Positions 15,762 to 64,000 of a stretch of 64,000 bases of DNA are shown piece after piece. A program made the position numbers and the translations under genes. The notes beneath the pieces are model-generated. The model was not told the origin of the DNA. It was given only the letters and a program-made list of their open reading frames with translations, and searched no databases. The stretch's first letter is position 1; each line of letters opens with the position of its first letter. This stretch comes from an uncultured archaeon (lineage in GTDB: Archaea > Aenigmatarchaeota > Aenigmatarchaeia > GW2011-AR5): assembly GCA_964373255.1 (NCBI GenBank), contig CAYJTG010000005.1, positions 10,638-74,637 of the forward strand, read 5' to 3'.

Positions 15762-16046
15762 CTACATTAAGGAAACGAACAGATAGAAGTTGCAAAGCAA
15801 CTTCAGTTTGCTTTTCCTTATAATCTAGACTTATTATGAAGCAAGTAAATAACCTGAATATTATAACTTGCTTCATTTACATGGAGAATCGAAGATTCTC
15901 CTGTACAATTTCGAATTCCAGGAATTCGAATTGTAATTGAAAATCTGAAGGATTTTCAAATTACAGGTGAAGCGTAGCTTCACCATGTATAGCAAACAAG
16001 AAATATAATATCTGATTCTTTTCTTGTTTAGCTATAATCCCTTCCT
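15762..16046. mobile_element. Composite element in the L37ae-rpoP spacer: family-H element interrupted by a full-length (~203 bp) XY-type hairpin element
   Basis: H left part ctacattaaggaaa...tctagactta (15762-15833), XY insert ttatgaagcaag...gtttagctata (15834-16036), H right end atcccttcct (16037-16046). XY carries 5 hairpin modules. Confidence 0.6.
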
Positions 16047-16068
16047 AAAAGATTTCCAATATATAGAT

Positions 16069-18884: not shown

Positions 18885-18998
18885 ACACCGTGTAATTTAT
18901 TGTCCTAGAATTTGCCTGATAAATATATTGCGATTAAGTATTTAAGCGTTCTTCGTGGCGAGTTTTACAATCTTGTTCGCATAAAATCTTTTGTTCCG

Positions 18999-19129
18999 GC
19001 TCTGTTGAAAACCTATGAAAAAGCATCGACGTAGACCCTTACGTCTTATCGACGTAAGGGTCAGCTAGAGCTATCATCGAGAGATGATAGCTCTCACGTC
19101 GATGCTTTTATTGAGCATTTCAACAGAGC
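18999..19129. mobile_element. Family-A MITE-like palindromic element, copy A1 (131 bp)
   Basis: Terminal inverted repeat gctctgttgaaa / tttcaacagagc, enclosing inverted repeat aaagcatcgacgt / acgtcgatgcttt, two perfect 12-bp hairpins (gacccttacgtc-ttatc-gacgtaagggtc; agagctatcatc-gaga-gatgatagctct). Confidence 0.75.
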
Positions 19130-19271
19130 CTTTGTTCCATAATTCTAGCACAAATTTCACATATACTGTTTCCACATTTGCCATTCATAGCTTTAGCCGC
19201 AATAAAAAGATTATTCGGATGTATATCTGCATTTCCAGCTATAGAAATAATTAAATTTTTTTTATTCATAA

Positions 19272-21752: not shown

Positions 21753-22061
21753 TGGGCTTGGCAGGATTTGAACCTGCGTCACAAGCTCCCAATGAGCATC
21801 AAATTATAGCTCTACAAGGAAAGAAACAAGATACAAGAAAGAACGAAGTTCTTTCTGTACAGCAAGAGCAAAGCTCTTGCTTGTATTACTTCCTTGTGAG
21901 CTATATGTGAAACCGGAAAAACATGTCCGGATTCTTTTCTGGTTTCACTATAAGCTCGGATCATAGTCGTATGAGATGCGAAGCATCTCTATGCTCTAAC
22001 CAAATTGTCCCACCTTCCGCTTTGATGCAGCTTTCTGGAAAGGTGCCTAGACTACAAGCCC
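21753..22061 (-). tRNA. tRNA-like gene with about 235 nt of structured intervening sequence (candidate multi-intron tRNA; anticodon not resolved, loop ATTGGGA suggests Pro/UGG)
   Basis: Minus strand: 5' GGGCTTG-TA-GTCTAGG... and 3' ...GTGAC-GCAGG-TTCAAAT-CCTGC-CAAGCCC-A. 7-bp acceptor helix, canonical T arm, discriminator A. Interior has several perfect hairpins. Confidence 0.5.
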
Positions 22062-22262: not shown

Positions 22263-22514
22263 TTAGAGCCGCATCGATTTATTTATCAGGTTATATTTTT
22301 GACTCTTTGATAGTTTCTTGAACGCCACTTCTGCCCTAAGCGCTTCGCCCTTCGTTTCGTGCGCCCAGTATGCAATAATTTCGACCGGAAGCCTGCTTCT
22401 AGTATATTTTGAGGCTTTTCCTTCATTGTGTAGCTTCAGTCTTCTCTTCAAGTTATTGGTATAACCTGTGTAAAATGATCCGTCCTTGCACTTCAAGACG
22501 TATACGTAGAACAT
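22263..22514 (-). CDS. GIY-YIG nuclease family protein (UPF0213-like)
   Basis: MFYVYVLKCKDGSFYTGYTNNLKRRLKLHNEG matches the GIY..YIG..N...R...H motif. Track ORF (to 22553) extends into MITE copy A4, so the internal Met at 22514 is taken as start. Confidence 0.65.
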   Translation of the reverse strand: MFYVYVLKCKDGSFYTGYTNNLKRRLKLHNEGKASKYTRSRLPVEIIAYWAHETKGEALRAEVAFKKLSKSQKYNLINKSMRL

Positions 22515-22524
22515 AAAATTACCT

Positions 22525-22655
22525 GCTCTGTAGAAATGCTCGATAAAGAGCATCGACGTAGACCTATACGTCTCTTGACGTATAGGTCAGCTAGAGATAT
22601 CATCGATAGATGATATCTCTCACGTCGATGCTCTTGCATAGGTTTTCTACAGAGC
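22525..22655. mobile_element. Family-A MITE-like element, diverged copy A4
   Basis: Same architecture as A1. Both internal hairpins carry compensatory substitutions that keep perfect pairing. Confidence 0.65.
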
Positions 22656-22707
22656 AAAATTACCTAATTATATACTATATATTCGGAAAGGATTAAGTCT
22701 GATTTCT

Positions 22708-22815
22708 CAGGAAGGGATTAAGTCTAGACACACAGAAAGCAAAGCTTTCTGGTGCACCAAAGAACCTTTGGTTCTTTGCGTGTTATAAGGGAAACCCAGG
22801 TTTCCCTTAATGTAG
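22708..22815 (-). repeat. Family-H hairpin-string element, copy H3 (reverse orientation)
   Basis: Reverse complement of the 51654-51761 element: cattaagggaaacccaggtttccctta / aaagaaccaaaggttcttt / cagaaagctttgctttctg / tctagacttaatcccttcctg. Confidence 0.6.
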
Positions 22816-23069: not shown

Positions 23070-23212
23070 GACACTGTCAACTTAAGGGGTACATAATGGA
23101 ATCGAAGATTCCACTTGTACAGGTGAAGCTTTGCTTCACCATGTATTAGCTATCGCTAATACCCCAGAAAAGGCTGTTGCCTATAGGCAACAGCCGTTAA
23201 GTTGACAGTGCC
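23070..23212. mobile_element. Family-Z TIR element, copy Z1 (internal module replaced)
   Basis: TIRs cactgtcaacttaag / cttaagttgacagtg; internal ggctgttgcc-tatag-gcaacagcc hairpin. Central segment carries the ggaatcgaagattcc and caggtgaagctttgcttcacc modules seen at 15880-16000. Confidence 0.6.
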
Positions 23213-26079: not shown

Positions 26080-26121
26080 ATAATTAAATAAATTAAATAT
26101 TTGATTTTGGGAGGTAGTTGC

Positions 26122-29100
26122 ATGGCAAAAATAACAAAAGTTCGAAAAAGAGACGGAAGAATTGTAAATTTTGGCAAAGACAAGATAACAAACGCTATAT
26201 TCAAGGCCGTCCAGGCAGTAGGCGGGTCTGACAAAACTATAGCAGAAAGCCTTGCAAATCAGGTCATGGAAATTCTGGAAAAGAATATGCCACCGGGCGC
26301 TATTCCAAACATAGAGGATATACAGGATATTGTCGAGAGGGTTCTGATAGAATCCGGCCATGCAAAGACAGCAAAGGCCTACATACTTTACAGGAATGAG
26401 CACGCCAGAGTAAGGGAAGAGCAGAAAAGAATATTAGGCGGCAAAACAACAAAGCTCCCCTTCAGCATGAATGCCCTGCAGGTTCTTGCAAAGCGCTACC
26501 TTGTAAGAAACAGGGACGGTAATGTTATTGAATCGCCTGATGATATGTTCGAGAGGGTTGCTGATTCTTTGGCAAGCGTGGAGTACGAGTATGGAAAAAC
26601 AAACGAGGAAGTCGAAAAATTTTCCCAGCAGTTCAATGAAATCATGGCAAGTTTTGAGTTCATACCAGCTGGGCGCACAATGACAAACGCGGGCTCGCCG
26701 ACCCCTATAGTGCCTAATTGCATAGTCCTTCATATTGGCGACAACATGGATAACATATTTCAGACACTTAAAGAAGCCTCGCTTCTTCAGCAGGCAGGCT
26801 CTGGGTTGGGATTTCCGTTCCACCTGCTAAGGCCGGCCGGCACCGTTGCAAAGCGCTCCCGTGGGGTAGCCTCCGGTCCGGTCTCTTTCCTGCGCGTTTA
26901 CAATAATGCATTCGGCGTGATAAAACAGCAAAACAGGCACGGCGCGAACATGGGCGTTATGCGCGTCGACCATCCGGATATACTTGAATTCATACACGCA
27001 AAGGACGTCGAGGGCGAGATAAGGAACTTCAACATCTCCGTTGCAATTACAGATGAATTCATGCAGAAGGCACGCGACAACGATTCAACGCCTTGGATAT
27101 GCGAGTGGAACGGCGAAAAGATGAAGCCAAGGCGCGTTTACAGGGATTCAAACGGCATTGTTCTCGACATCAAGGAGGAGACAATGACGGCAAAAGAAAT
27201 CTTCATGGAAATTGTGTCGTCGGCATGGCAGACCGGCGAACCTGGAATAATCTTCATCGACAAAATAAATGATACAAATCCGTTGCCCGGTCTTGGTCGA
27301 ATAGAGGCGTGTAATCCTTGTGTGACCGGCGATACATTAGTAAGCACGGAACACGGAATGATGAAAATATCTGATTTGGCAGAGAAACATGGAAAAGGTG
27401 GCGTATCTGTAATTTGTGACAATAGGATGCCTATAACAATATATGAATCTGATGGAACCAAAGTCCTGATATACAAAGGCACAAAAGGCACACAAATCAA
27501 TAACGTGAGTGCTGCATGGAAATCTGGCTTCAAAGATGTATTGAAAATTGAAACAGAATCGGGGTACGAGCTTGAAGCCACAGCAGATCATAAGATAATG
27601 ACAACAAAAGGATGGATAGATGTCGAAAACCTTACAAAAGAACACGAAATTCTTATTCAATCAGGAGAAGGAAGATTCTCTGTAAACAACCAAATTCCAT
27701 TTGAAGTGCAGAATGAATTTATTGGAGAAAATGGCAGAACTTATAAATATAATTTTCCTCGTCAATGGAACAGGGAATTGGGGCAACTTCTTGGCTGGAT
27801 CGTAGGTGATGGCTGGATAAGAGACAAGGAAAAGGAGTGCGATAAAGAAATAATGACACATATAAAGTCGATAGGAAACATGATTTATGGCTCTGAAAAA
27901 CGAGAAATTGAAAGAATAAGAAATACACACCATCTCAATTATGGTTCACGACGCTTTGTAGAATACCTTATGAAGCTTGGGCTCAAGACAACAGGCGCAG
28001 AAAATAAAGAAGTACCAAAGAGCATTTTCACAGCACCAAAAGACGCTGTATCAGGCTTCCTTCAAGGTTTGTTTTCATCAGATGGCACAGTAATGCTAGA
28101 CGAAAAACATGGCAACTATTATATAAGATTGACAACGAAATCGATAAAACTTGCAAAACAGGTTCAGACACTTCTTCTGAACTTCGGAATTAAGTCAAGA
28201 ATATACGACAGGAGCAGGCCGCCAAAAAAGAACCTATTTACGTATGAAACAAAATCAGGAGAAAAAAGAACTTATGCATCTGACGGAATTCTGTTTGAAG
28301 TGCATGTACATGGCGATACAATAATAAAATTTAATGAACAAATAGGATTTCTATGCAGTAAAAATAAAGAGAAAATAGAAAAGATACTGAAAAAGAATCT
28401 AAGAGACGATAAATTTACAGACAAAGTAAAATATGTCGAGTACATTGGCAAGAAAGATGTCTACGATCTCACAGAACCAGCGACGCACTCTTTCATAGCA
28501 AATGGTATTGTGGTATCAAATTGTGGTGAGCAATTTCTCCACGACGGCGATGTCTGCAATCTTGGTTCGATAAATCTGGAAAAATTTGTAAAAGATGGCA
28601 AAATAGATTTTGATCGATTAAGGCATGTCACACGTTTAGCTGTGCGTATGCTTGACAACGTTGTCGATATCACAGCAGCGCCTGCCGACCGTGTCAATCA
28701 CATGTTCCGCGCAAACCGCAGGGTCGGTTTGGGCATAATGGGCTTTGCGGATATGCTCTATCAACTGAAGATAGGTTATAATGCAGAAGAGGGCGCAAAG
28801 ACAGCAGAAAAGGTCATGAACTGCATTCAAGAATCTGCCCACCAAATGTCGCAAGAGCTTGCTGAGGAGAAAGGCGTGTTTCCAAACTGGGAGAAGAGCG
28901 TATTTGCAAAGAAAGGTATAAAGATGCGAAACGCCGCGCTCACAAACATCGCCCCGACAGGAACTATATCCATGGTCTTCGACGTTTCCGGGGGCGTAGA
29001 ACCTTATTTTGCCTTGGCTTACCACTACCAGGGAATTCTGGGGGGCGCAACCCAGCTCTACTACGTCAACAAGCACCTGAGAAAGACACTGGAAGAGTAT

Positions 29101-29589
29101 GGTTTATACAACGATGTAATAATGAAGCGCATATTTGAGGAAGGAACGCTGCAGCGTATAGAAGAAATCCCTGATGATTTGAAGCGTGTGTTTGTCACGG
29201 CCATGGATATTTCATCCGACGACCACATACGGGTGCAGGCGGCTTTCCAGAAATACGTTGACAACAGCATATCAAAGACGTGCAACTTCCCTGAGGACGC
29301 TACAAAAGAGGACGTCTTTCAGGGATATCTGCTCGCCTGGCAGCTCGGCTGCAAGAGCTGCACCGTGTACAGAAACAACTCACGCAGGCTGCAAGTGCTG
29401 AATCTTAACAAGCAGAAACAGGAGGAAGTTCAGGAAGAGGAGTACGAGCCGCAGCAGCAGAAGATAGCGGTCGCAGCCACAAACGGTTCTACACATTACA
29501 CGACGTGTCCAGAGTGTGACACCGTGCTGGAGCAAAAAGAAGGGTGTTCTTCTTGCCCTCAGTGCGGCTGGGGATTGTGCAGCGTGTAA
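26122..29589 (+). CDS. nrdJ: Class II (B12-dependent) ribonucleotide reductase NrdJ, with N-terminal ATP cone, one intein, and C-terminal Zn ribbon
   Basis: ATP cone [21 protein letters not shown]. Catalytic motif NP|CGEQ split by the intein. C-terminal CPECD...CPQCG. GGAGGT 7 nt upstream of ATG 26122. Extein ~760 aa. Confidence 0.85.
27319..28521 (+). mobile_element. Intein (401 aa) with LAGLIDADG homing-endonuclease domain, inserted before the catalytic Cys of the RNR NPCGE motif
   Basis: N-extein ...EACNP | [11 protein letters not shown] (Cys1, block A) ... [11 protein letters not shown] and [12 protein letters not shown] (two LAGLIDADG-type motifs) ... IANGIVVSN | CGEQF (terminal Asn, +1 Cys). 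Confidence 0.8.
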
Positions 29590-34971: not shown

Positions 34972-34980
34972 TTACATAGT

Positions 34981-35167
34981 GCTCTGTAGAAAACCTATGC
35001 AAGAGCATCGACGTGAGAGCTATTATCTTCTAAGATAACAAAGTTATCTTGAAGATTCAGGTTGACTTTGTCAACCATGAATCTGTCGATAATAGCTCTA
35101 GCTGACCTATACGTCAAGAGACGTATAGGTCTACGTCGATGCTCTTTATCGTGCATTTCTACAGAGC
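34981..35167. mobile_element. Family-A MITE-like element, copy A5 with inverted core plus a 70-bp insert
   Basis: Same TIRs and cgtcgatgc inverted repeats as A1. Internal hairpin pair is in reverse-complement order relative to A1/A2/A3. Also carries an extra insert ttctaagataacaaagttatcttgaa... Confidence 0.65.
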
Positions 35168-35220
35168 TTTACATAGGAAATCTCATCAACTTTTTATAAA
35201 AGGCACTACAATAGATTTCT

Positions 35221-36747: not shown

Positions 36748-37548
36748 CTATTTTGTGTGTATCTCTACTATATCTCTGTCCATCAGCTTATAATCCAGCC
36801 CAGCCTGTATAATCCTGCCGCCTCTGAATATGCGCGCGAAGCGAAAATTTTTCACAAAATCCTTGTGTATGCGTTGCGCGAAGTCTTTTACCAGCGAATT
36901 AATCGGCAGCGCCATCGGGGTATTTATTCTCCCCTTTTTTGTGTAGACAATTATCAATCCAAGGTTGTGCCATATCTTCTCTCTTATCAGTTCTGCCGGT
37001 TCTTCAAACGGATTGGCGAACGTATATTTCGTGCGTATGAAACTATCCGAGAGGAATTTCTTTAAGTCGTCTTCCTCCTTTTCGTGCCTCGCAATTAAGA
37101 CAATCAGGTCCGACGTTCTTGCGACGCTCACGAACTGCGACTCAAACGTTGACGGAATTTCTATCAGTTGTATCTTGACGCCATTATAATCCATCATGCC
37201 AACTTCTGGTTTTGTTGTTGTATACGGGTGATAGGCGATATCAGGGTTCGCGTCTGTGAGCTTGCTGAGAATGTAGCTTTTTCCAGAATTTGTAAACCCT
37301 ATAAAGCAGACCTGCGCTTCCCCTTCCTTTTGCAGCGCAAAGGTTCGGCCGCCCTTTTTTCTACCCGCAGATTCTTTCTTCAGCTTAGACAATCGTGATT
37401 TCAGTTGCGCGAGCATGTTCTCGCTGCCGTGGTGCCTCGGCATCAGGCGAATCATCTCTTCCAATGCCACTATTTTATCTTCTTTTGTCTTTGCCGATCT
37501 GAACTTTTCCTCGGCCCTGAAGTACTCGGGCGGCGCGTTGACAGGCAT
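36748..37548 (-). CDS. DRG/Obg-family GTPase (short form) with C-terminal TGS-like segment
   Basis: N-terminal KNKATEHHLG-like helix (HHGSENMLAQLKSRLSKLKKE), G1 GFTNSGKS, C-terminal RDIVEI. 266 aa, shorter than typical DRG. Confidence 0.5.
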   Translation of the reverse strand: MPVNAPPEYFRAEEKFRSAKTKEDKIVALEEMIRLMPRHHGSENMLAQLKSRLSKLKKESAGRKKGGRTFALQKEGEAQVCFIGFTNSGKSYILSKLTDANPDIAYHPYTTTKPEVGMMDYNGVKIQLIEIPSTFESQFVSVARTSDLIVLIARHEKEEDDLKKFLSDSFIRTKYTFANPFEEPAELIREKIWHNLGLIIVYTKKGRINTPMALPINSLVKDFAQRIHKDFVKNFRFARIFRGGRIIQAGLDYKLMDRDIVEIHTK

Positions 37549-37767
37549 AATTAAAGATACACGAAAAAGAATTAAAGATGCTAGTTTTTCCAGTATCTTA
37601 TTACATTAAACTTATTGTATCTGTTTAGCTCCTAAGGTAACTCACTAGTGTATCAAAGACATTTAATCCTTGCAGACTCCACGTGGCAAAACAGCTCATT
37701 ACGACTTCGTGGACCTTGGCTCCTTCCAAGCTTCTCAGACCTCCCATGGTTTTCCTTTCTGCCTTAA

Positions 37768-39912: not shown

Positions 39913-40097
39913 GGAGATACAGGCATAGTCATGCAAGGAAATAATCAGTATATAATTATACCCTTGCTGACTATATGTGAAACCAGTCATAGCATGTCCA
40001 GATTATTTACTGGTTTCACTATAAACCGCATTACAAACATCTTTATACAACATAGTTCTAACTTCTAACAGAAAACGATAAAAAATTATGAAAATGA

Positions 40098-42448: not shown

Positions 42449-42616
42449 ACTACATTAAGGGAAAAGAACAGATAGAAGTTGCTTCGCAACTTCAGTTTGT
42501 CTTTCCCTTAAAATGCTCAAAGAACCGAAGGTTCTTTGACATCTGCAAAGAAGCATAGCTTCTTTGAGATTCCGAAAAGCTTTGCTTTCTGAGCATCTAG
42601 ACTTAATCCTTTCCTG
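42449..42616 (+). repeat. Family-H hairpin-string element, copy H1, abutting the gltX stop codon
   Basis: ctacattaagggaaa[...gaagttgc-ttcg-gcaacttc...]tttccctta / aaagaaccgaaggttcttt / ...tctagacttaatcctttcctg. Confidence 0.6.
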
Positions 42617-42794
42617 AATATTTTCTCATAAACTTCCCTATAATCAGCAGATCTTCACCTTTTGCAAAATGGCTTTTCAGTTTTCCTTCTTTGAAATCTC
42701 CATATTCCTTGAAAAACGGAAAATATTGTAGAAATAGAATAGTAATTACAAATAGTACAAAATATTCTTATACTACCTAAAACCAGTATTAATC

Positions 42795-46606: not shown

Positions 46607-46650
46607 GATTGTGATGTGTAAACCAAATCTTAAATACGTAAAAAACTAGA

Positions 46651-46846
46651 GCACTGTCAACTTATTATGAAGCAAGTAAATAATCTGGATATTATAGCAA
46701 ACAAGAAATATAATACCTGATTCTTTTCTTGTTTAGCTATAAGGGTGGTTAGCCATTGCTAACCACCCAGAAAAGGCTGTTGCCAAAGCAGATAGACGCA
46801 CTTTAGTGCGTCAGTTTGTTTCAACAGCCGCTAAGTTGACAGTGCC
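46651..46846. mobile_element. Family-Z TIR element, copy Z2, with two nested insertions
   Basis: TIRs gcactgtcaactta / taagttgacagtgcc. A 79-bp XY-type element (ttatgaagcaagtaaataatctg...gtttagctata) inserted after caactta. A second hairpin module (agatagacgcactttagtgcgtcagtttgtttc) lies inside the ggctgttgcc...aacagcc loop. Confidence 0.6.
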
Positions 46847-48889: not shown

Positions 48890-48910
48890 GATTATAAACC
48901 TCTTACTTTG

Positions 48911-49041
48911 GCTCTGTTGAAAACCTATGAAAAAGCATCGACGTAGACCCTTACGTCTTATCGACGTAAGGGTCAGCTAGAGCTATTGTCAAAAGACAAT
49001 AGCTCTCACGTCGATGCTTTTATTGAGCATTTCAACAGAGC
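48911..49041. mobile_element. Family-A MITE-like element, copy A2, filling the S24e-S27ae spacer
   Basis: Identical TIRs and outer stems to A1. Second hairpin carries compensatory change (ctattgtc-aaaa-gacaatag versus ctatcatc-gaga-gatgatag). Confidence 0.75.
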
Positions 49042-49043
49042 TC

Positions 49044-49358
49044 CTACTTTCCTTCTTTTCCTTTGCTATCTTTGGTCTGCTCTTCTGCCGGAACTTCTGG
49101 TTTTTCTTCTTTCTTAGACAGGTCTTTTGCCTTCTTTTCATCCCATATAAAAACGTGTGCGGTTGCTTTGGGCATGCCATTTTCTGGCATTATGTCGTAG
49201 ACTTCTATGTGCTCGACTTCTTTGCCTATCTCTTTGGCTAATAATTGCTGCAGCGCAGCTTTTTGTGGCGTAGGTTCTTCTGGATTTTCTATGCCTACGA
49301 CTAGCTCTTTTCTTTTCATGAACGGGTTATATTTTTCCTTTGCGATTTCTGTTTTCAT
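49044..49358 (-). CDS. rps24e: Ribosomal protein S24e
   Basis: NPFMKRKELVVGIENPEEPTP...EHIEVYDIMPENGMPKATAHVFIWDEKKA matches the S24e family; acidic/Lys-rich tail. Confidence 0.8.
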   Translation of the reverse strand: MKTEIAKEKYNPFMKRKELVVGIENPEEPTPQKAALQQLLAKEIGKEVEHIEVYDIMPENGMPKATAHVFIWDEKKAKDLSKKEEKPEVPAEEQTKDSKGKEGK

Positions 49359-51653: not shown

Positions 51654-51761
51654 CTACATTAAGGGAAACCCAGGTTTCCCTTATAACACGCAAAGAACCA
51701 AAGGTTCTTTGGTGCACCAGAAAGCTTTGCTTTCTGTGTGTCTAGACTTAATCCCTTCCTG
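51654..51761 (+). repeat. Family-H hairpin-string element, copy H2, immediately upstream of rpoE
   Basis: cattaagggaaacccaggtttccctta / aaagaaccaaaggttcttt / cagaaagctttgctttctg / tctagacttaatcccttcctg. Confidence 0.6.
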
Positions 51762-52016
51762 AAATTTTTGCTTAAGCTTTTTTAAAAAAGCTTACTAGAC
51801 TTGCCTTCCCTCACTTGCCTGTTTGTTCTCATGAGTAGTTAGAAATTTTAAAATCATGAAGAACATATCTTTCTTGAGAGTAAGAGGTTTTAAAGCTTTC
51901 TTTCATCGGTATTGAAAAATTAACATTCCACCATTTTTCTACAGTATCTCCGAAAGTTGGATTACTGCCTCTTTGCAGTAATCCTCTACCGAGGTATATG
52001 CCACAAGGCGTATACC

Positions 52017-52307
52017 TCACTTTCGGAGATACTCTTCTATGTAGAACAGTACTTTGTTGGGATCGACAGGCCCATAGGACATTTTGTGCTTGTGATTTTC
52101 AAAGACCGATAACATGTAATCCCCCGGTTTGATACTTTGCACTATATCTGTTCTTTCTTTAGGGACAAATATGCCATTGAATTCATCGTGGCAAACAATT
52201 TCATAACAACCAGGAAAATCAGAAGGTTCTTCTATGTGTGATACTTTCCTGACTCTAGTATGAAGACCATTTTCAATAAGCTTGTCTGTAGTTTGAACCT
52301 GTAGCAT
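52017..52307 (-). CDS. Hypothetical protein, 96 aa
   Basis: No motif. Confidence 0.25.
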   Translation of the reverse strand: MLQVQTTDKLIENGLHTRVRKVSHIEEPSDFPGCYEIVCHDEFNGIFVPKERTDIVQSIKPGDYMLSVFENHKHKMSYGPVDPNKVLFYIEEYLRK

Positions 52308-55977: not shown

Positions 55978-56263
55978 TCTTCAACACCTTCTATTTTTTA
56001 TTAGGGCGATACATAAGTCGGTCTAGTTGTTTGTTGATTGAGCAAAGACCGTCTTTCGTATTCAATACCCCTTTATATTTTCGTTAGAAACAGGACCTCA
56101 ATGAAGCTCTAGTAAAAGCGAAAAATCGCCCCGACTTCTTAACTAAAGCCAAAAACCCTGAATTCCGGGTTCCTTCTGCCTTACTTCCCTTCACTTACTT
56201 CCTTTCCCTAACAGTACTAATTATTGATAAAAGATAAGTATTTAAAAAGGATAAATCGGAGGG

Positions 56264-56351
56264 GCACTGTCAACTTAAGGGTGGTTAGCTGTTGCTAACC
56301 ACCCAGAAAAGGCTGTTGCCGATAGGCAACAGCCGTTAAGTTGACAGTGCC
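56264..56351. mobile_element. Family-Z TIR element, compact canonical copy Z3 (88 bp)
   Basis: ggcactgtcaacttaag / gggtggttagc-tgtt-gctaaccaccc / agaaaa / ggctgttgcc-gatag-gcaacagcc / gttaagttgacagtgcc. Two perfect hairpins inside perfect 16-bp TIRs. Confidence 0.7.
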
Positions 56352-63337: not shown

Positions 63338-63377
63338 AATTTTATATGGCGGATTGTGTTTATATTGGTTTTTATTA

Positions 63378-63509
63378 GCTCTGTTGAAAACCTATGAAAA
63401 AGCATCGACGTAGACCCTTACGTCTTATCTACGTAAGGGTCAGCTAGAGCTATCATCAACAGACGATAGCTCTCACGTCGATGCTTTTTGTTGAGCATTT
63501 CTACAGAGC
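63378..63509. mobile_element. Family-A MITE-like element, copy A3
   Basis: Near-identical to A1 over the first 75 bp; right hairpin variant (ctatcatc-aaca-gacgatag); right TIR tttctacagagc. Confidence 0.75.
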
Positions 63510-63540
63510 CTTTTTATTCTTTCTTCTGAATACGGATTCT

Positions 63541-64000
63541 ATGTCCTACGCAATTCTTGAGAAAAACTCGGCGGCGAAGCTTGCATCCGATGAAATAATC
63601 GCCGGCGTATTGAATGGAAGCATAAATAAAAATAATTTTGAATACGAAAAAATCCGCGTATCGAAGAAGTACGGCACCGGAAAAATAATAAAAAACGCCG
63701 AGGTCTTCCAGTTCGTCGAAGGATCTGATCCCAATCATGAATTTCTGAAGATTTTTCTCAAGACAAAGCCGGTAAGAACATCTTCCGGTGTGGCAAATAT
63801 TGCTGTCATGTGGCTTGACCATGCGCACAGGAGCCCTCACGATCCTGATAAATTTTACTCGTGCCCTGCTGCCTGCGTCTACTGCCCACAGGGAGGAGCG
63901 AAAGACGTCAACGGCGTTATTGTGCAGGTTCCAAAGAGCTACACCGGCTGCGAGCCCACAACCATGCGCGCTATCAGAAACAACTACGACCCGTTCCTTC
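63541..64000 (+). CDS. Elp3-like radical-SAM tRNA (c)m5U34-modification enzyme, 3'-truncated by window edge
   Basis: KPVRTSSGVANIAVMW...HRSPHDPDKFYSCPAACVYCPQG matches the Elp3 N-terminal block including CxxxCxxC radical-SAM motif. ORF open to the window end. Confidence 0.55.
   Translation, partial: MSYAILEKNSAAKLASDEIIAGVLNGSINKNNFEYEKIRVSKKYGTGKIIKNAEVFQFVEGSDPNHEFLKIFLKTKPVRTSSGVANIAVMWLDHAHRSPHDPDKFYSCPAACVYCPQGGAKDVNGVIVQVPKSYTGCEPTTMRAIRNNYDPFL

Follow-up and report, generated by a model that had tools for sequence, protein, structure and literature searches.

A mobile two-hairpin repeat of an Aenigmatarchaeota archaeon, with covarying stems and ends that resemble those of IS6/IS26

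When the two sides of a hairpin stem change together in a small repeat, it is an open question whether such "compensatory" substitutions reflect selection on the structure or template switching in a single replication step. The question is raised by 64,000 nucleotides from an uncultured archaeon of the Aenigmatarchaeota (contig CAYJTG010000005.1, positions 10,638 to 74,637; this whole stretch is the window below). In it, an earlier note made from the sequence alone had described a palindromic repeat, Family A, as a MITE (a miniature transposable element with inverted repeats) or a structured RNA family, in five intergenic copies whose internal hairpins differ by paired changes. The note took these changes to imply selection on a hairpin, or else templated repair within palindromes. 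The analysis presented here points to a mobile DNA element whose stems would be kept paired at the DNA level.

Structure and mobility of Family A

The five copies of Family A, A1 to A5, were found where they had been described (Table 1). The motifs GCTCTGTWGAAA and GCATCGACGT occur exactly ten times each in the window, once per arm, and are confined to these five elements; in shuffled sequence 0.8 and 2.5 matches, respectively, were obtained at up to one mismatch, and the observed count was reached in 0/100 shuffles. The unit had been given as 131 bp with 12-bp terminal inverted repeats (TIRs), a 13-bp second inverted repeat (IR2) just inside them and two perfect 12-bp hairpins. The inverted repeats are present and the description is exact for A1, but the full unit is 133 bp, since GCTCTG is bordered at either end by a further, variable base (mostly G...C), the tip base. 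The 8-bp target duplication had been missed, and A5 has a single mismatch in each hairpin (C/T and A/C). In A1 the TIR GCTCTGTTGAAA is followed by a spacer, the IR2 arm AAAGCATCGACGT, an unpaired A, hairpin 1 (12-bp stem, 5-nt loop), AGCT, hairpin 2 (12-bp stem, 4-nt loop), an unpaired C and the mirror arms. The spacer, absent from the earlier note, is asymmetric and 8-9 nt long (ACCTATGA on one side, TGCTCAAT on the other). A single strand of A1 folds into a Y-shaped three-way junction of -51 kcal/mol as DNA and -79 as RNA (z = -14.7 and -14.6 against shuffles). Complete copies measure 129-243 bp, have perfect or near-perfect TIRs of 12-13 bp and hold no transposase open reading frame (ORF) or other coding capacity. 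The extra length of A3 comes from the loop of hairpin 2, which is replaced by about 60 nt with two additional nested hairpins.

The search for related copies gave nine complete and eight truncated elements beyond the window, in a metagenome-assembled genome (MAG) and in metagenomes. These loci are numbered L001-L018, and 17 related loci were used in the comparisons. When one genome per species was scanned, Family A turned up in four contigs of one MAG, Candidatus Aenigmatarchaeota archaeon NC_groundwater_479, and there was one chance half-match in an Acidobacteriota MAG. A scan of the JGI metagenomes returned 13 stretches, among which L014 is a chance match; in most of the rest the contig stops partway through the element, as repeats tend to make contigs do. 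Short-read contigs likewise end at Family A, and the Logan contigs that carry the gene beside A3 stop inside the element. The copies are dispersed over differing contexts in the window, the one Aenigmatarchaeota MAG and 11 metagenome contigs.

Outside the tip base, an 8-bp direct repeat borders each of the 14 complete copies (five in the window, nine from the MAG and metagenomes). Over these copies the two repeats agree at 108 of 112 positions at this single offset, against 30-45 at the neighbouring offsets, and 11 of the duplications are perfect. The tip base is G on the left in eight copies and C on the right in eight. A 9-bp duplication was ruled out, the ninth base agreeing in only about one third of the copies; the arrangement is 8 bp plus the tip base. 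Duplications at a fixed offset, dispersed copies and contigs broken at the element identify Family A as mobile, and it is almost certainly a real MITE. The non-autonomous, MITE-like nature proposed at the outset is thus upheld by the TIRs, the exact 8-bp duplications, the lack of coding capacity and the dispersal. Nothing was found to suggest that the repeats arose by chance or through misassembly, or that they are solo ends of an insertion sequence (IS), and these readings can practically be dismissed: the motifs lie far above shuffles, the family is shared by the MAG, the JGI metagenomes and the Logan contigs, and both ends are always present, with target duplications. The note had also raised the case of a fragment of a known IS terminus. 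The ends do resemble those of IS6/IS26, as set out below, but the element is a complete, two-ended MITE and not a fragment.

The target sites are AT-rich and very near gene ends. All copies are intergenic, as had been stated, though very tightly so, since the duplications of A4 and A5 include stop codons: the right duplicate of A4 holds that of rpS24e, the sole mismatch between its duplicates being TAG against TAA, and the right duplicate of A5 holds that of the ORF at 63514-63840. A3 starts immediately 3' of a stop codon. A2 adjoins a GIY-YIG ORF (22263-22553, minus strand), 1 nt upstream of its ATG, and this insertion must have split the gene from its earlier promoter. The arm of A2 also gives the GIY-YIG ORF an in-frame upstream ATG, which would add 13 residues (MLFIEHFYRAGNF). 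A blastn comparison of all loci with the window and with each other yielded no orthologous empty site, the relatives being too divergent or cut at the element. The single syntenic gene in this comparison, between L010 and window 37144-37551, is 68% identical and its adjacent genes differ; in the MAG/metagenome pair L001/L015 the insertions lie at different places. The syntenic gene encodes a GTPase (L010 1402-1809), and at this 68% DNA identity the arms of the L010 element are nearly identical to the window arms, as if the arms were strongly constrained or the element had spread horizontally.

With its tip base the end of Family A reads GGCTCTGT(T/A)GAAA, i.e. (G)GCTCTGT[T/A]GAAA. The end of IS6100, GGCTCTGTTGCAAA, was read from plasmid pTET3, where it stands with its reverse complement around an annotated IS6100-family transposase; it is identical to GGCTCTGTTGAAAA of Family A at 13 of 14 positions. 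In the IS6/IS26 family, which has 8-bp target repeats (PMC7986276), the ends follow the consensus GGTTCTGTTGCAAA; G1, G2 and G7 occur in almost all members, G10 is strongly conserved, and positions 3 and 4 vary most (PMC6807381, PMC7986276). G7 and G10 of Family A are nearly invariant (each in 10 of 11 copies), the cTGTt motif is present, and 27 of the 28 ends have the second G (all but ...CAGAGT of L003). Family A therefore fits the IS6/IS26 end consensus and the 8-bp duplication, save for C11 and the imperfect outermost G. Judged by the ends and the duplication length only, the ends of Family A are probably of IS6/IS26 type.

Several points weigh against this assignment. The outermost tip base is G/C at only 16 of 28 ends, where GG tips are near-universal in IS6/IS26, and position 11 is A where the consensus has C. 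A tblastn search with the IS6100 transposase gave nothing below E = 1 in the window or the 17 related loci, and scans of viral contigs for a partner, with the full arm and with single-arm types, gave zero or only chance matches; the partner transposase with matching TIRs that the note had envisaged was thus found in none of these. ISL3-family elements likewise have ends that start with GG, and 8-bp duplications. Family A could accordingly be a MITE of another DDE family with such ends and duplications, for example ISL3. The missing IS6-type transposase and the variable tip base would fit, as would the report that archaeal IS6-like elements lack G10 and have longer terminal repeats (PMC6807381), Family A having G10. 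We consider this origin quite unlikely in view of the match to the IS6100 end, the presence of G1, G2, G7, G10 and cTGTt together, and a duplication of exactly 8 bp. In addition, a second family of the window starts GGCACTGT, as IS26 does: the first 8 nt of its end GGCACTGTCAACTTAA are those of the IS26 end, which was checked in plasmid R46.

Covariation of the stems and its origin

Covariation was scored in eleven two-hairpin copies, oriented by the core, over 49 pairs and 537 cells; these are related sequences and were taken without independence. Over the whole element pairing is intact in 98.1% of the 537 cells, and it falls to 18-50% if the partner is slid. Both sides have changed in 16 of the 49 pairs (54 cells), and neither the covariation score nor the paired fraction was reached in any of 500 shuffles, so the claim that the paired changes go beyond chance stands. 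The covariation is real, and we have hardly any doubt of it. The account of its cause given below is weakened by the small number of sequences compared, 11-14, and by the kinship among them. Fourteen of the both-side-changed pairs lie in the two hairpins (8 of 12 pairs in hairpin 1, 6 of 12 in hairpin 2); the other two are TIR position 8 (A-T in six copies, T-A in four) and a pair just outside the second repeat. The examples of paired change given earlier are genuine but had their labels for A2 and A4 swapped: GACCTATACGTC/GACGTATAGGTC, assigned to A4, is in A2 and A3, and CTATTGTC/GACAATAG (ctattgtc/gacaatag), assigned to A2, is in A4. Mean pairwise identity is 0.91-0.92 in the TIR and 0.96-0.98 in GCATCGACGT, against 0.58-0.77 in the hairpin stems; therefore the arms are under sequence constraint, and in the stems pairing is all that is constrained. 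The stems of the window and those of the MAG have hardly any sequence in common (GACCCTTACGTC against GCGGTATACGCA), with stem length, loop length and the AGCT linker kept, and all 14 complete copies retain both hairpins at 12 bp with loops of 3-5 nt.

The details of the changes bear on whether they were made at the level of RNA or of DNA. Among the 264 cells of the hairpin stems we counted one G-U, three A-C and one C-T; wobble pairs are thus no better tolerated than mismatches of other kinds, and neither strand is favoured. Transversions (GC to CG, AU to UA and AU to CG, in either direction) make up 7 of the 14 both-side-changed hairpin pairs, and for these there is no route through a G-U intermediate. 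The fold is equally good on both strands, and the covariance structure model scores both. A1 and A4 are identical at 125 positions, and the six sites that differ all lie in a 12-nt stretch at the hairpin 2 apex (P = 8e-6); at one of these apex pairs A5 has an A-C intermediate. The core itself occurs in two orientations, hairpin 1 adjoining the TGCTC arm in 17 copies and the ACCTA arm in A1, A4, A5 and L005. The core of L005 is 84-90% identical to the opposite-orientation copies of its own MAG and 65-71% identical to the same-orientation copies of the window, and the cores of the window copies show the same pattern, closer to their own lineage than to copies of the same orientation. Core likeness follows lineage and not orientation, and therefore the inversion has occurred at least twice, once in the window lineage and once in that of the MAG. 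Lastly, the larger copies A3, L004, L010 and L017 have extra perfect hairpins nested inside hairpin 1 or 2. A separate small transposon was considered for these nested insertions and rejected, as no duplications flank them and the window lacks separate copies of them; their sequence gave one 17-nt match, in L001, within ordinary sequence.

Template switching homogenises the arms of inverted repeats, inverts spacers, and produces multinucleotide changes and new perfect hairpins (PMC8794818, PMC8604942). The scarcity of G-U pairs, the transversions, the lack of strand bias, the clustering at the apex, the core inversion and the added hairpins favour maintenance at the DNA level over selection on an RNA. 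On these patterns of substitution, we think it rather more probable that the covariation comes mainly from templated correction of DNA than from RNA-level selection. Selection on a hairpin is thus not implied as had been claimed, and the alternative offered beside it, templated repair within palindromes, fits Watson-Crick pairing, transversions, apex clusters, core inversions and new hairpins better.

Three features speak against a purely mutational origin. One is the constant size of both hairpins in all complete copies. Another is the polarity of the loops. With the core read forward, hairpin 1 has a pyrimidine-rich loop in every copy (TTATC, TCTT, TGTT, TATC and others) and hairpin 2 a purine-rich one (GAGA, GATA, GGAA, AAAA and others), and the loops are never inverted; frequent template switching might be expected to randomise them, so there may be some selection on the loops or on a strand-specific form. 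The asymmetric spacer of 8-9 nt, moreover, has not been homogenised in any copy. The loops of L008 are exact reverse complements (TATC and GATA), and the stems of hairpins 1 and 2 look alike by eye. The loop pattern, the L008 loops and this likeness suggest a single origin, probably a long palindrome with AGCT at its centre.

Family A might instead be a structured non-coding RNA, such as a stabiliser in the 3' untranslated region (UTR), a terminator or a small RNA, with pairing kept by RNA folding and mobility serving only as dispersal, as has been suggested for bcr1. The very strong covariation, which DNA palindromes should produce as well, and the very stable fold would agree with this, and so would the hairpin 2 loops, often GNRA-like (GAGA, GGAA), and the conserved loop polarity. 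Three of the five window copies abut stop codons and are probably co-transcribed in 3' UTRs, and there is a precedent in bcr1, which is transcribed and has compensatory changes (PMC3184786). We nevertheless regard an RNA as unlikely. Rfam gave no match anywhere in the window at the gathering score; when the element was searched at E<=10, the best match had 17 bits against a threshold of 93. The variable stems have hardly any G-U and their mismatches no strand bias; half of the both-side changes are transversions; both strands fold equally, and copies lie in either orientation, and with either core orientation, relative to the neighbouring genes. Sequence conservation, furthermore, peaks in the arms and not in the loops or junctions. 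The structured RNA family put forward in the earlier note has thus gained no positive support. A C/D-box small RNA was also rejected, the Rfam C/D-box matches being insignificant, and a C-box-like GATGATAG seen by eye in the hairpin 2 stem of A1 and A2 (GACGATAG in A5) is merely part of the variable stem.

The hairpins may, on the other hand, have no function at all, being passenger palindromes that template-switch repair keeps in a MITE, with the common Y shape due to descent or module exchange. The stems drift nearly as fast as the loops, hairpin modules are common to different repeat families of the window, and template switching alone can make and keep perfect stems (PMC8794818). We find this unlikely on three grounds. 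The polarity of the loops is never inverted. Three families unrelated in sequence share the same outer stem and two hairpins (structure model E ~1e-9 to 1e-10). And palindromes are normally deletion-prone, yet all 14 complete copies, in several lineages, keep both 12-bp hairpins.

Taken as a whole, the account towards which we lean, if only slightly, is that of an IS6/IS26-type MITE whose palindromic core is restored at the DNA level, probably with selection for folding back. Insertion proceeds through an 8-bp staggered cut, leaving the 8-bp target duplications, and the element would be mobilised in trans by an IS6/IS26-type DDE transposase, as the shared terminal repeat motifs and duplication length suggest; an autonomous partner would be bounded by GGCTCTGTWGAAA or GGCACTGTCAACTT with 8-bp duplications. 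The conserved arms (TIR and sub-terminal GCATCGACGT) would be sequence-specific sites under selection for transposition. The Y-shaped core of two 12-bp hairpins, probably derived from the long palindrome centred on AGCT, would be nearly free to drift in sequence, while processes acting on the DNA would keep re-establishing its self-complementarity. As the element is replicated, the nascent strand would fold back or switch template within the palindrome, and a change in one arm would then be erased, or copied into the opposite arm, in one step. Such switching would account for the joint changes of neighbouring bases, the inversion of the core between the GCATCGACGT repeats, the new nested hairpins and the rare, unbiased G-T intermediates. 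We conjecture that copies that fold back well transpose better, for example if a cruciform or fold-back joins the two ends of a 133-bp element, and that selection at the level of the element would filter the products of template switching. A stronger form, in which a lineage of IS6-like transposons of DPANN archaea needs the Y-shaped core in cis as a DNA structure (a cruciform or three-way junction), seems improbable to us, although at least three MITE families of unrelated sequence in this genome have the design and the core flips between two orientations. If true, the required core could juxtapose the ends of very short elements or help cointegrate resolution, and a fold-back intermediate would actually form in vivo.

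Other palindromic repeats and host context

To search the window for the same design, a covariance model was made from the core of Family A, and it matched further elements with the Y design and unrelated sequence (Table 1). In the element at 56263-56351 the GG...CC tips are perfect, as is the 8-bp duplication (ATCGGAGG, 8/8), and among its relatives the one at 46650-46846 has the duplication AAAACTAG/AAAATTAG (7/8). One stem of the element at 51947-52029 (GAGGTATACGCC-like) resembles MAG variants of hairpin 1 of Family A. The pattern of a pyrimidine-rich and a purine-rich loop holds in the families at 56263 and 51947 as well. The intergenic repeats that we call family B consist of several short perfect hairpins, and their copies show compensated differences (e.g. 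CAAAGAAGC/GCTTCTTTG against CAAAGAACC/GGTTCTTTG). Counted over the window, there are 20 perfect hairpins (stem of at least 10 bp, loop of 3-7 nt), nearly all in intergenic repeats, against 0-1 in 20 Markov-chain controls. Compensated hairpins are not special to Family A; their cause could be the replication or repair of this genome, a requirement of the transposase, or both.

The window is archaeal chromosome, with genes for MCM, the FttA/aCPSF1 termination factor, a proteasome subunit, ribosomal protein S24e, an intein-containing ribonucleotide reductase and an H+-pyrophosphatase. The intein of the ribonucleotide reductase large subunit (window 26101-29589) has a LAGLIDADG homing-endonuclease domain (Pfam). 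No relation of the repeats to a tRNA or tmRNA was found in the window.

Table 1. Family A copies, the parts of copy A1 and the other palindromic repeats, in window coordinates (flip, hairpin 1 adjoins the TGCTC-type arm; flop, hairpin 1 adjoins the ACCTA-type arm)
Feature	Position	Strand	Details
Copy A1	18998..19130		133 bp including tip bases G...C; flop
A1 target duplication TTTGTTCC	18990-18997 and 19131-19138		8/8
A1 left TIR GCTCTGTTGAAA	18999..19010	+	with tip G, GGCTCTGTTGAAA
A1 IR2 left arm AAAGCATCGACGT	19020..19032	+	most conserved part of the element (mean pairwise identity 0.96-0.98, 11 copies)
A1 hairpin 1 GACCCTTACGTC-TTATC-GACGTAAGGGTC	19034..19062		12-bp stem, pyrimidine-rich loop
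A1 hairpin 2 AGAGCTATCATC-GAGA-GATGATAGCTCT	19067..19094		12-bp stem, purine-rich loop
A1 IR2 right arm ACGTCGATGCTTT	19096..19108	+	
A1 right TIR TTTCAACAGAGC	19118..19129	+	
Copy A2	22524..22656		flip; variant stems GACCTATACGTC, AGAGATATCATC
A2 target duplication AAATTACC	22516-22523 and 22657-22664		8/8
Copy A3	34980..35168		189 bp; flip; reverse orientation
A3 target duplication TTACATAG	34972-34979 and 35169-35176		8/8
Copy A4	48910..49042		flop; six differences from A1, all at the hairpin 2 apex
A4 target duplication CTTACTTT/CCTACTTT	48902-48909 and 49043-49050		7/8
Copy A5	63377..63510		flop; intermediate between A1 and A4
A5 target duplication TTTTTATT	63369-63376 and 63511-63518		8/8
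Second MITE family	56263-56351		16-bp ends GGCACTGTCAACTTAA; two hairpins, loops TGTT and GATA
Relatives of the second family	23070-23212 and 46650-46846		longer; extra nested hairpins, some common to other repeat families
Third Y-shaped element	51947-52029		14-bp outer stem GTATCTCCGAAAGT; two hairpins
Family B hairpin-rich intergenic repeats	15762-16050, 42455-42620, 22680-22815, 51690-51770, 21820-21955, 39955-40024		

Comparison with known systems

Like the insertion sequences and MITEs of the IS6/IS26 family, Family A has short terminal repeats with cTGT(t) and an A-rich end, GG at many of its tips and an 8-bp duplication, and like the MITEs among them it is two-ended and lacks an ORF. 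It differs from these MITEs in its variable tip base, its conserved sub-terminal second inverted repeat and its Y-shaped core of two hairpins. MITEs with such ends are rare in the catalogues: ISfinder has two only, MITEBth2 and MITEHarch3, of 227 and 336 bp (PMC7986276). Family A is shorter, at 133 bp, and has a DPANN-type archaeal host. MITEs are dense in some DPANN genomes (PMC11602168); in the open-access literature we found only bulk MITE counts for DPANN and no description of Family A or of MITEs from Aenigmatarchaeota, and the combination of IS6-like ends, a Y core in two orientations and stepwise gain of hairpins was not found in open-access text.

Other short intergenic repeats with stable stem-loops are the BOX elements of pneumococci, which are modular with a variable number of internal modules, and the Correia elements of Neisseria, which are MITEs with a TA duplication and a centre thought to bend DNA. 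Neither is known to have a core of two hairpins at a three-way junction in flip and flop forms, and the termini and duplications of both differ from those of Family A. The closest likeness in shape is the inverted terminal repeat of adeno-associated virus, a parvovirus, in which an outer palindrome surrounds two small ones in a T or Y fold and inversion of the inner part gives flip and flop. In that virus the two forms arise through hairpin-primed replication of a linear single-stranded genome. The resemblance is one of structure only, without homology, Family A being a chromosomal transposon.

Two bacterial systems are nearer in their pattern of change. The bcr1 element of the Bacillus cereus group is, like Family A, mobile and small (about 155 bp), with short target duplications, a cruciform-like fold and compensatory changes (PMC3184786). 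Unlike Family A it has 5-bp duplications and is transcribed, and its structure has been argued to act at the RNA level, whereas the mismatch spectrum of Family A points to DNA. REP sequences and REPINs, too, are small, palindromic and mobile; their hairpins stay paired through compensatory changes, and the spacer drifts (PMC3116915). They move by a single-strand route of the HUH type (RAYT) without such TIRs or duplications, in contrast to the 8-bp duplications and DDE-type ends of Family A; a REP/REPIN or IS200/IS605-type element was ruled out for Family A by its clear TIRs and 8-bp duplications.

Hairpin-preserving compensatory changes in small mobile repeats are therefore already known from bcr1 and REPINs. 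Beside them, Family A offers a compact natural test case, with conserved arms as an internal control, fast turnover of the stems and A5-like intermediates, and it also displays spacer inversion and the birth of hairpins within one element. It likewise calls for caution where RNAs are sought in metagenomes by covariation, as a palindromic transposon can give near-perfect covariation without being an RNA.

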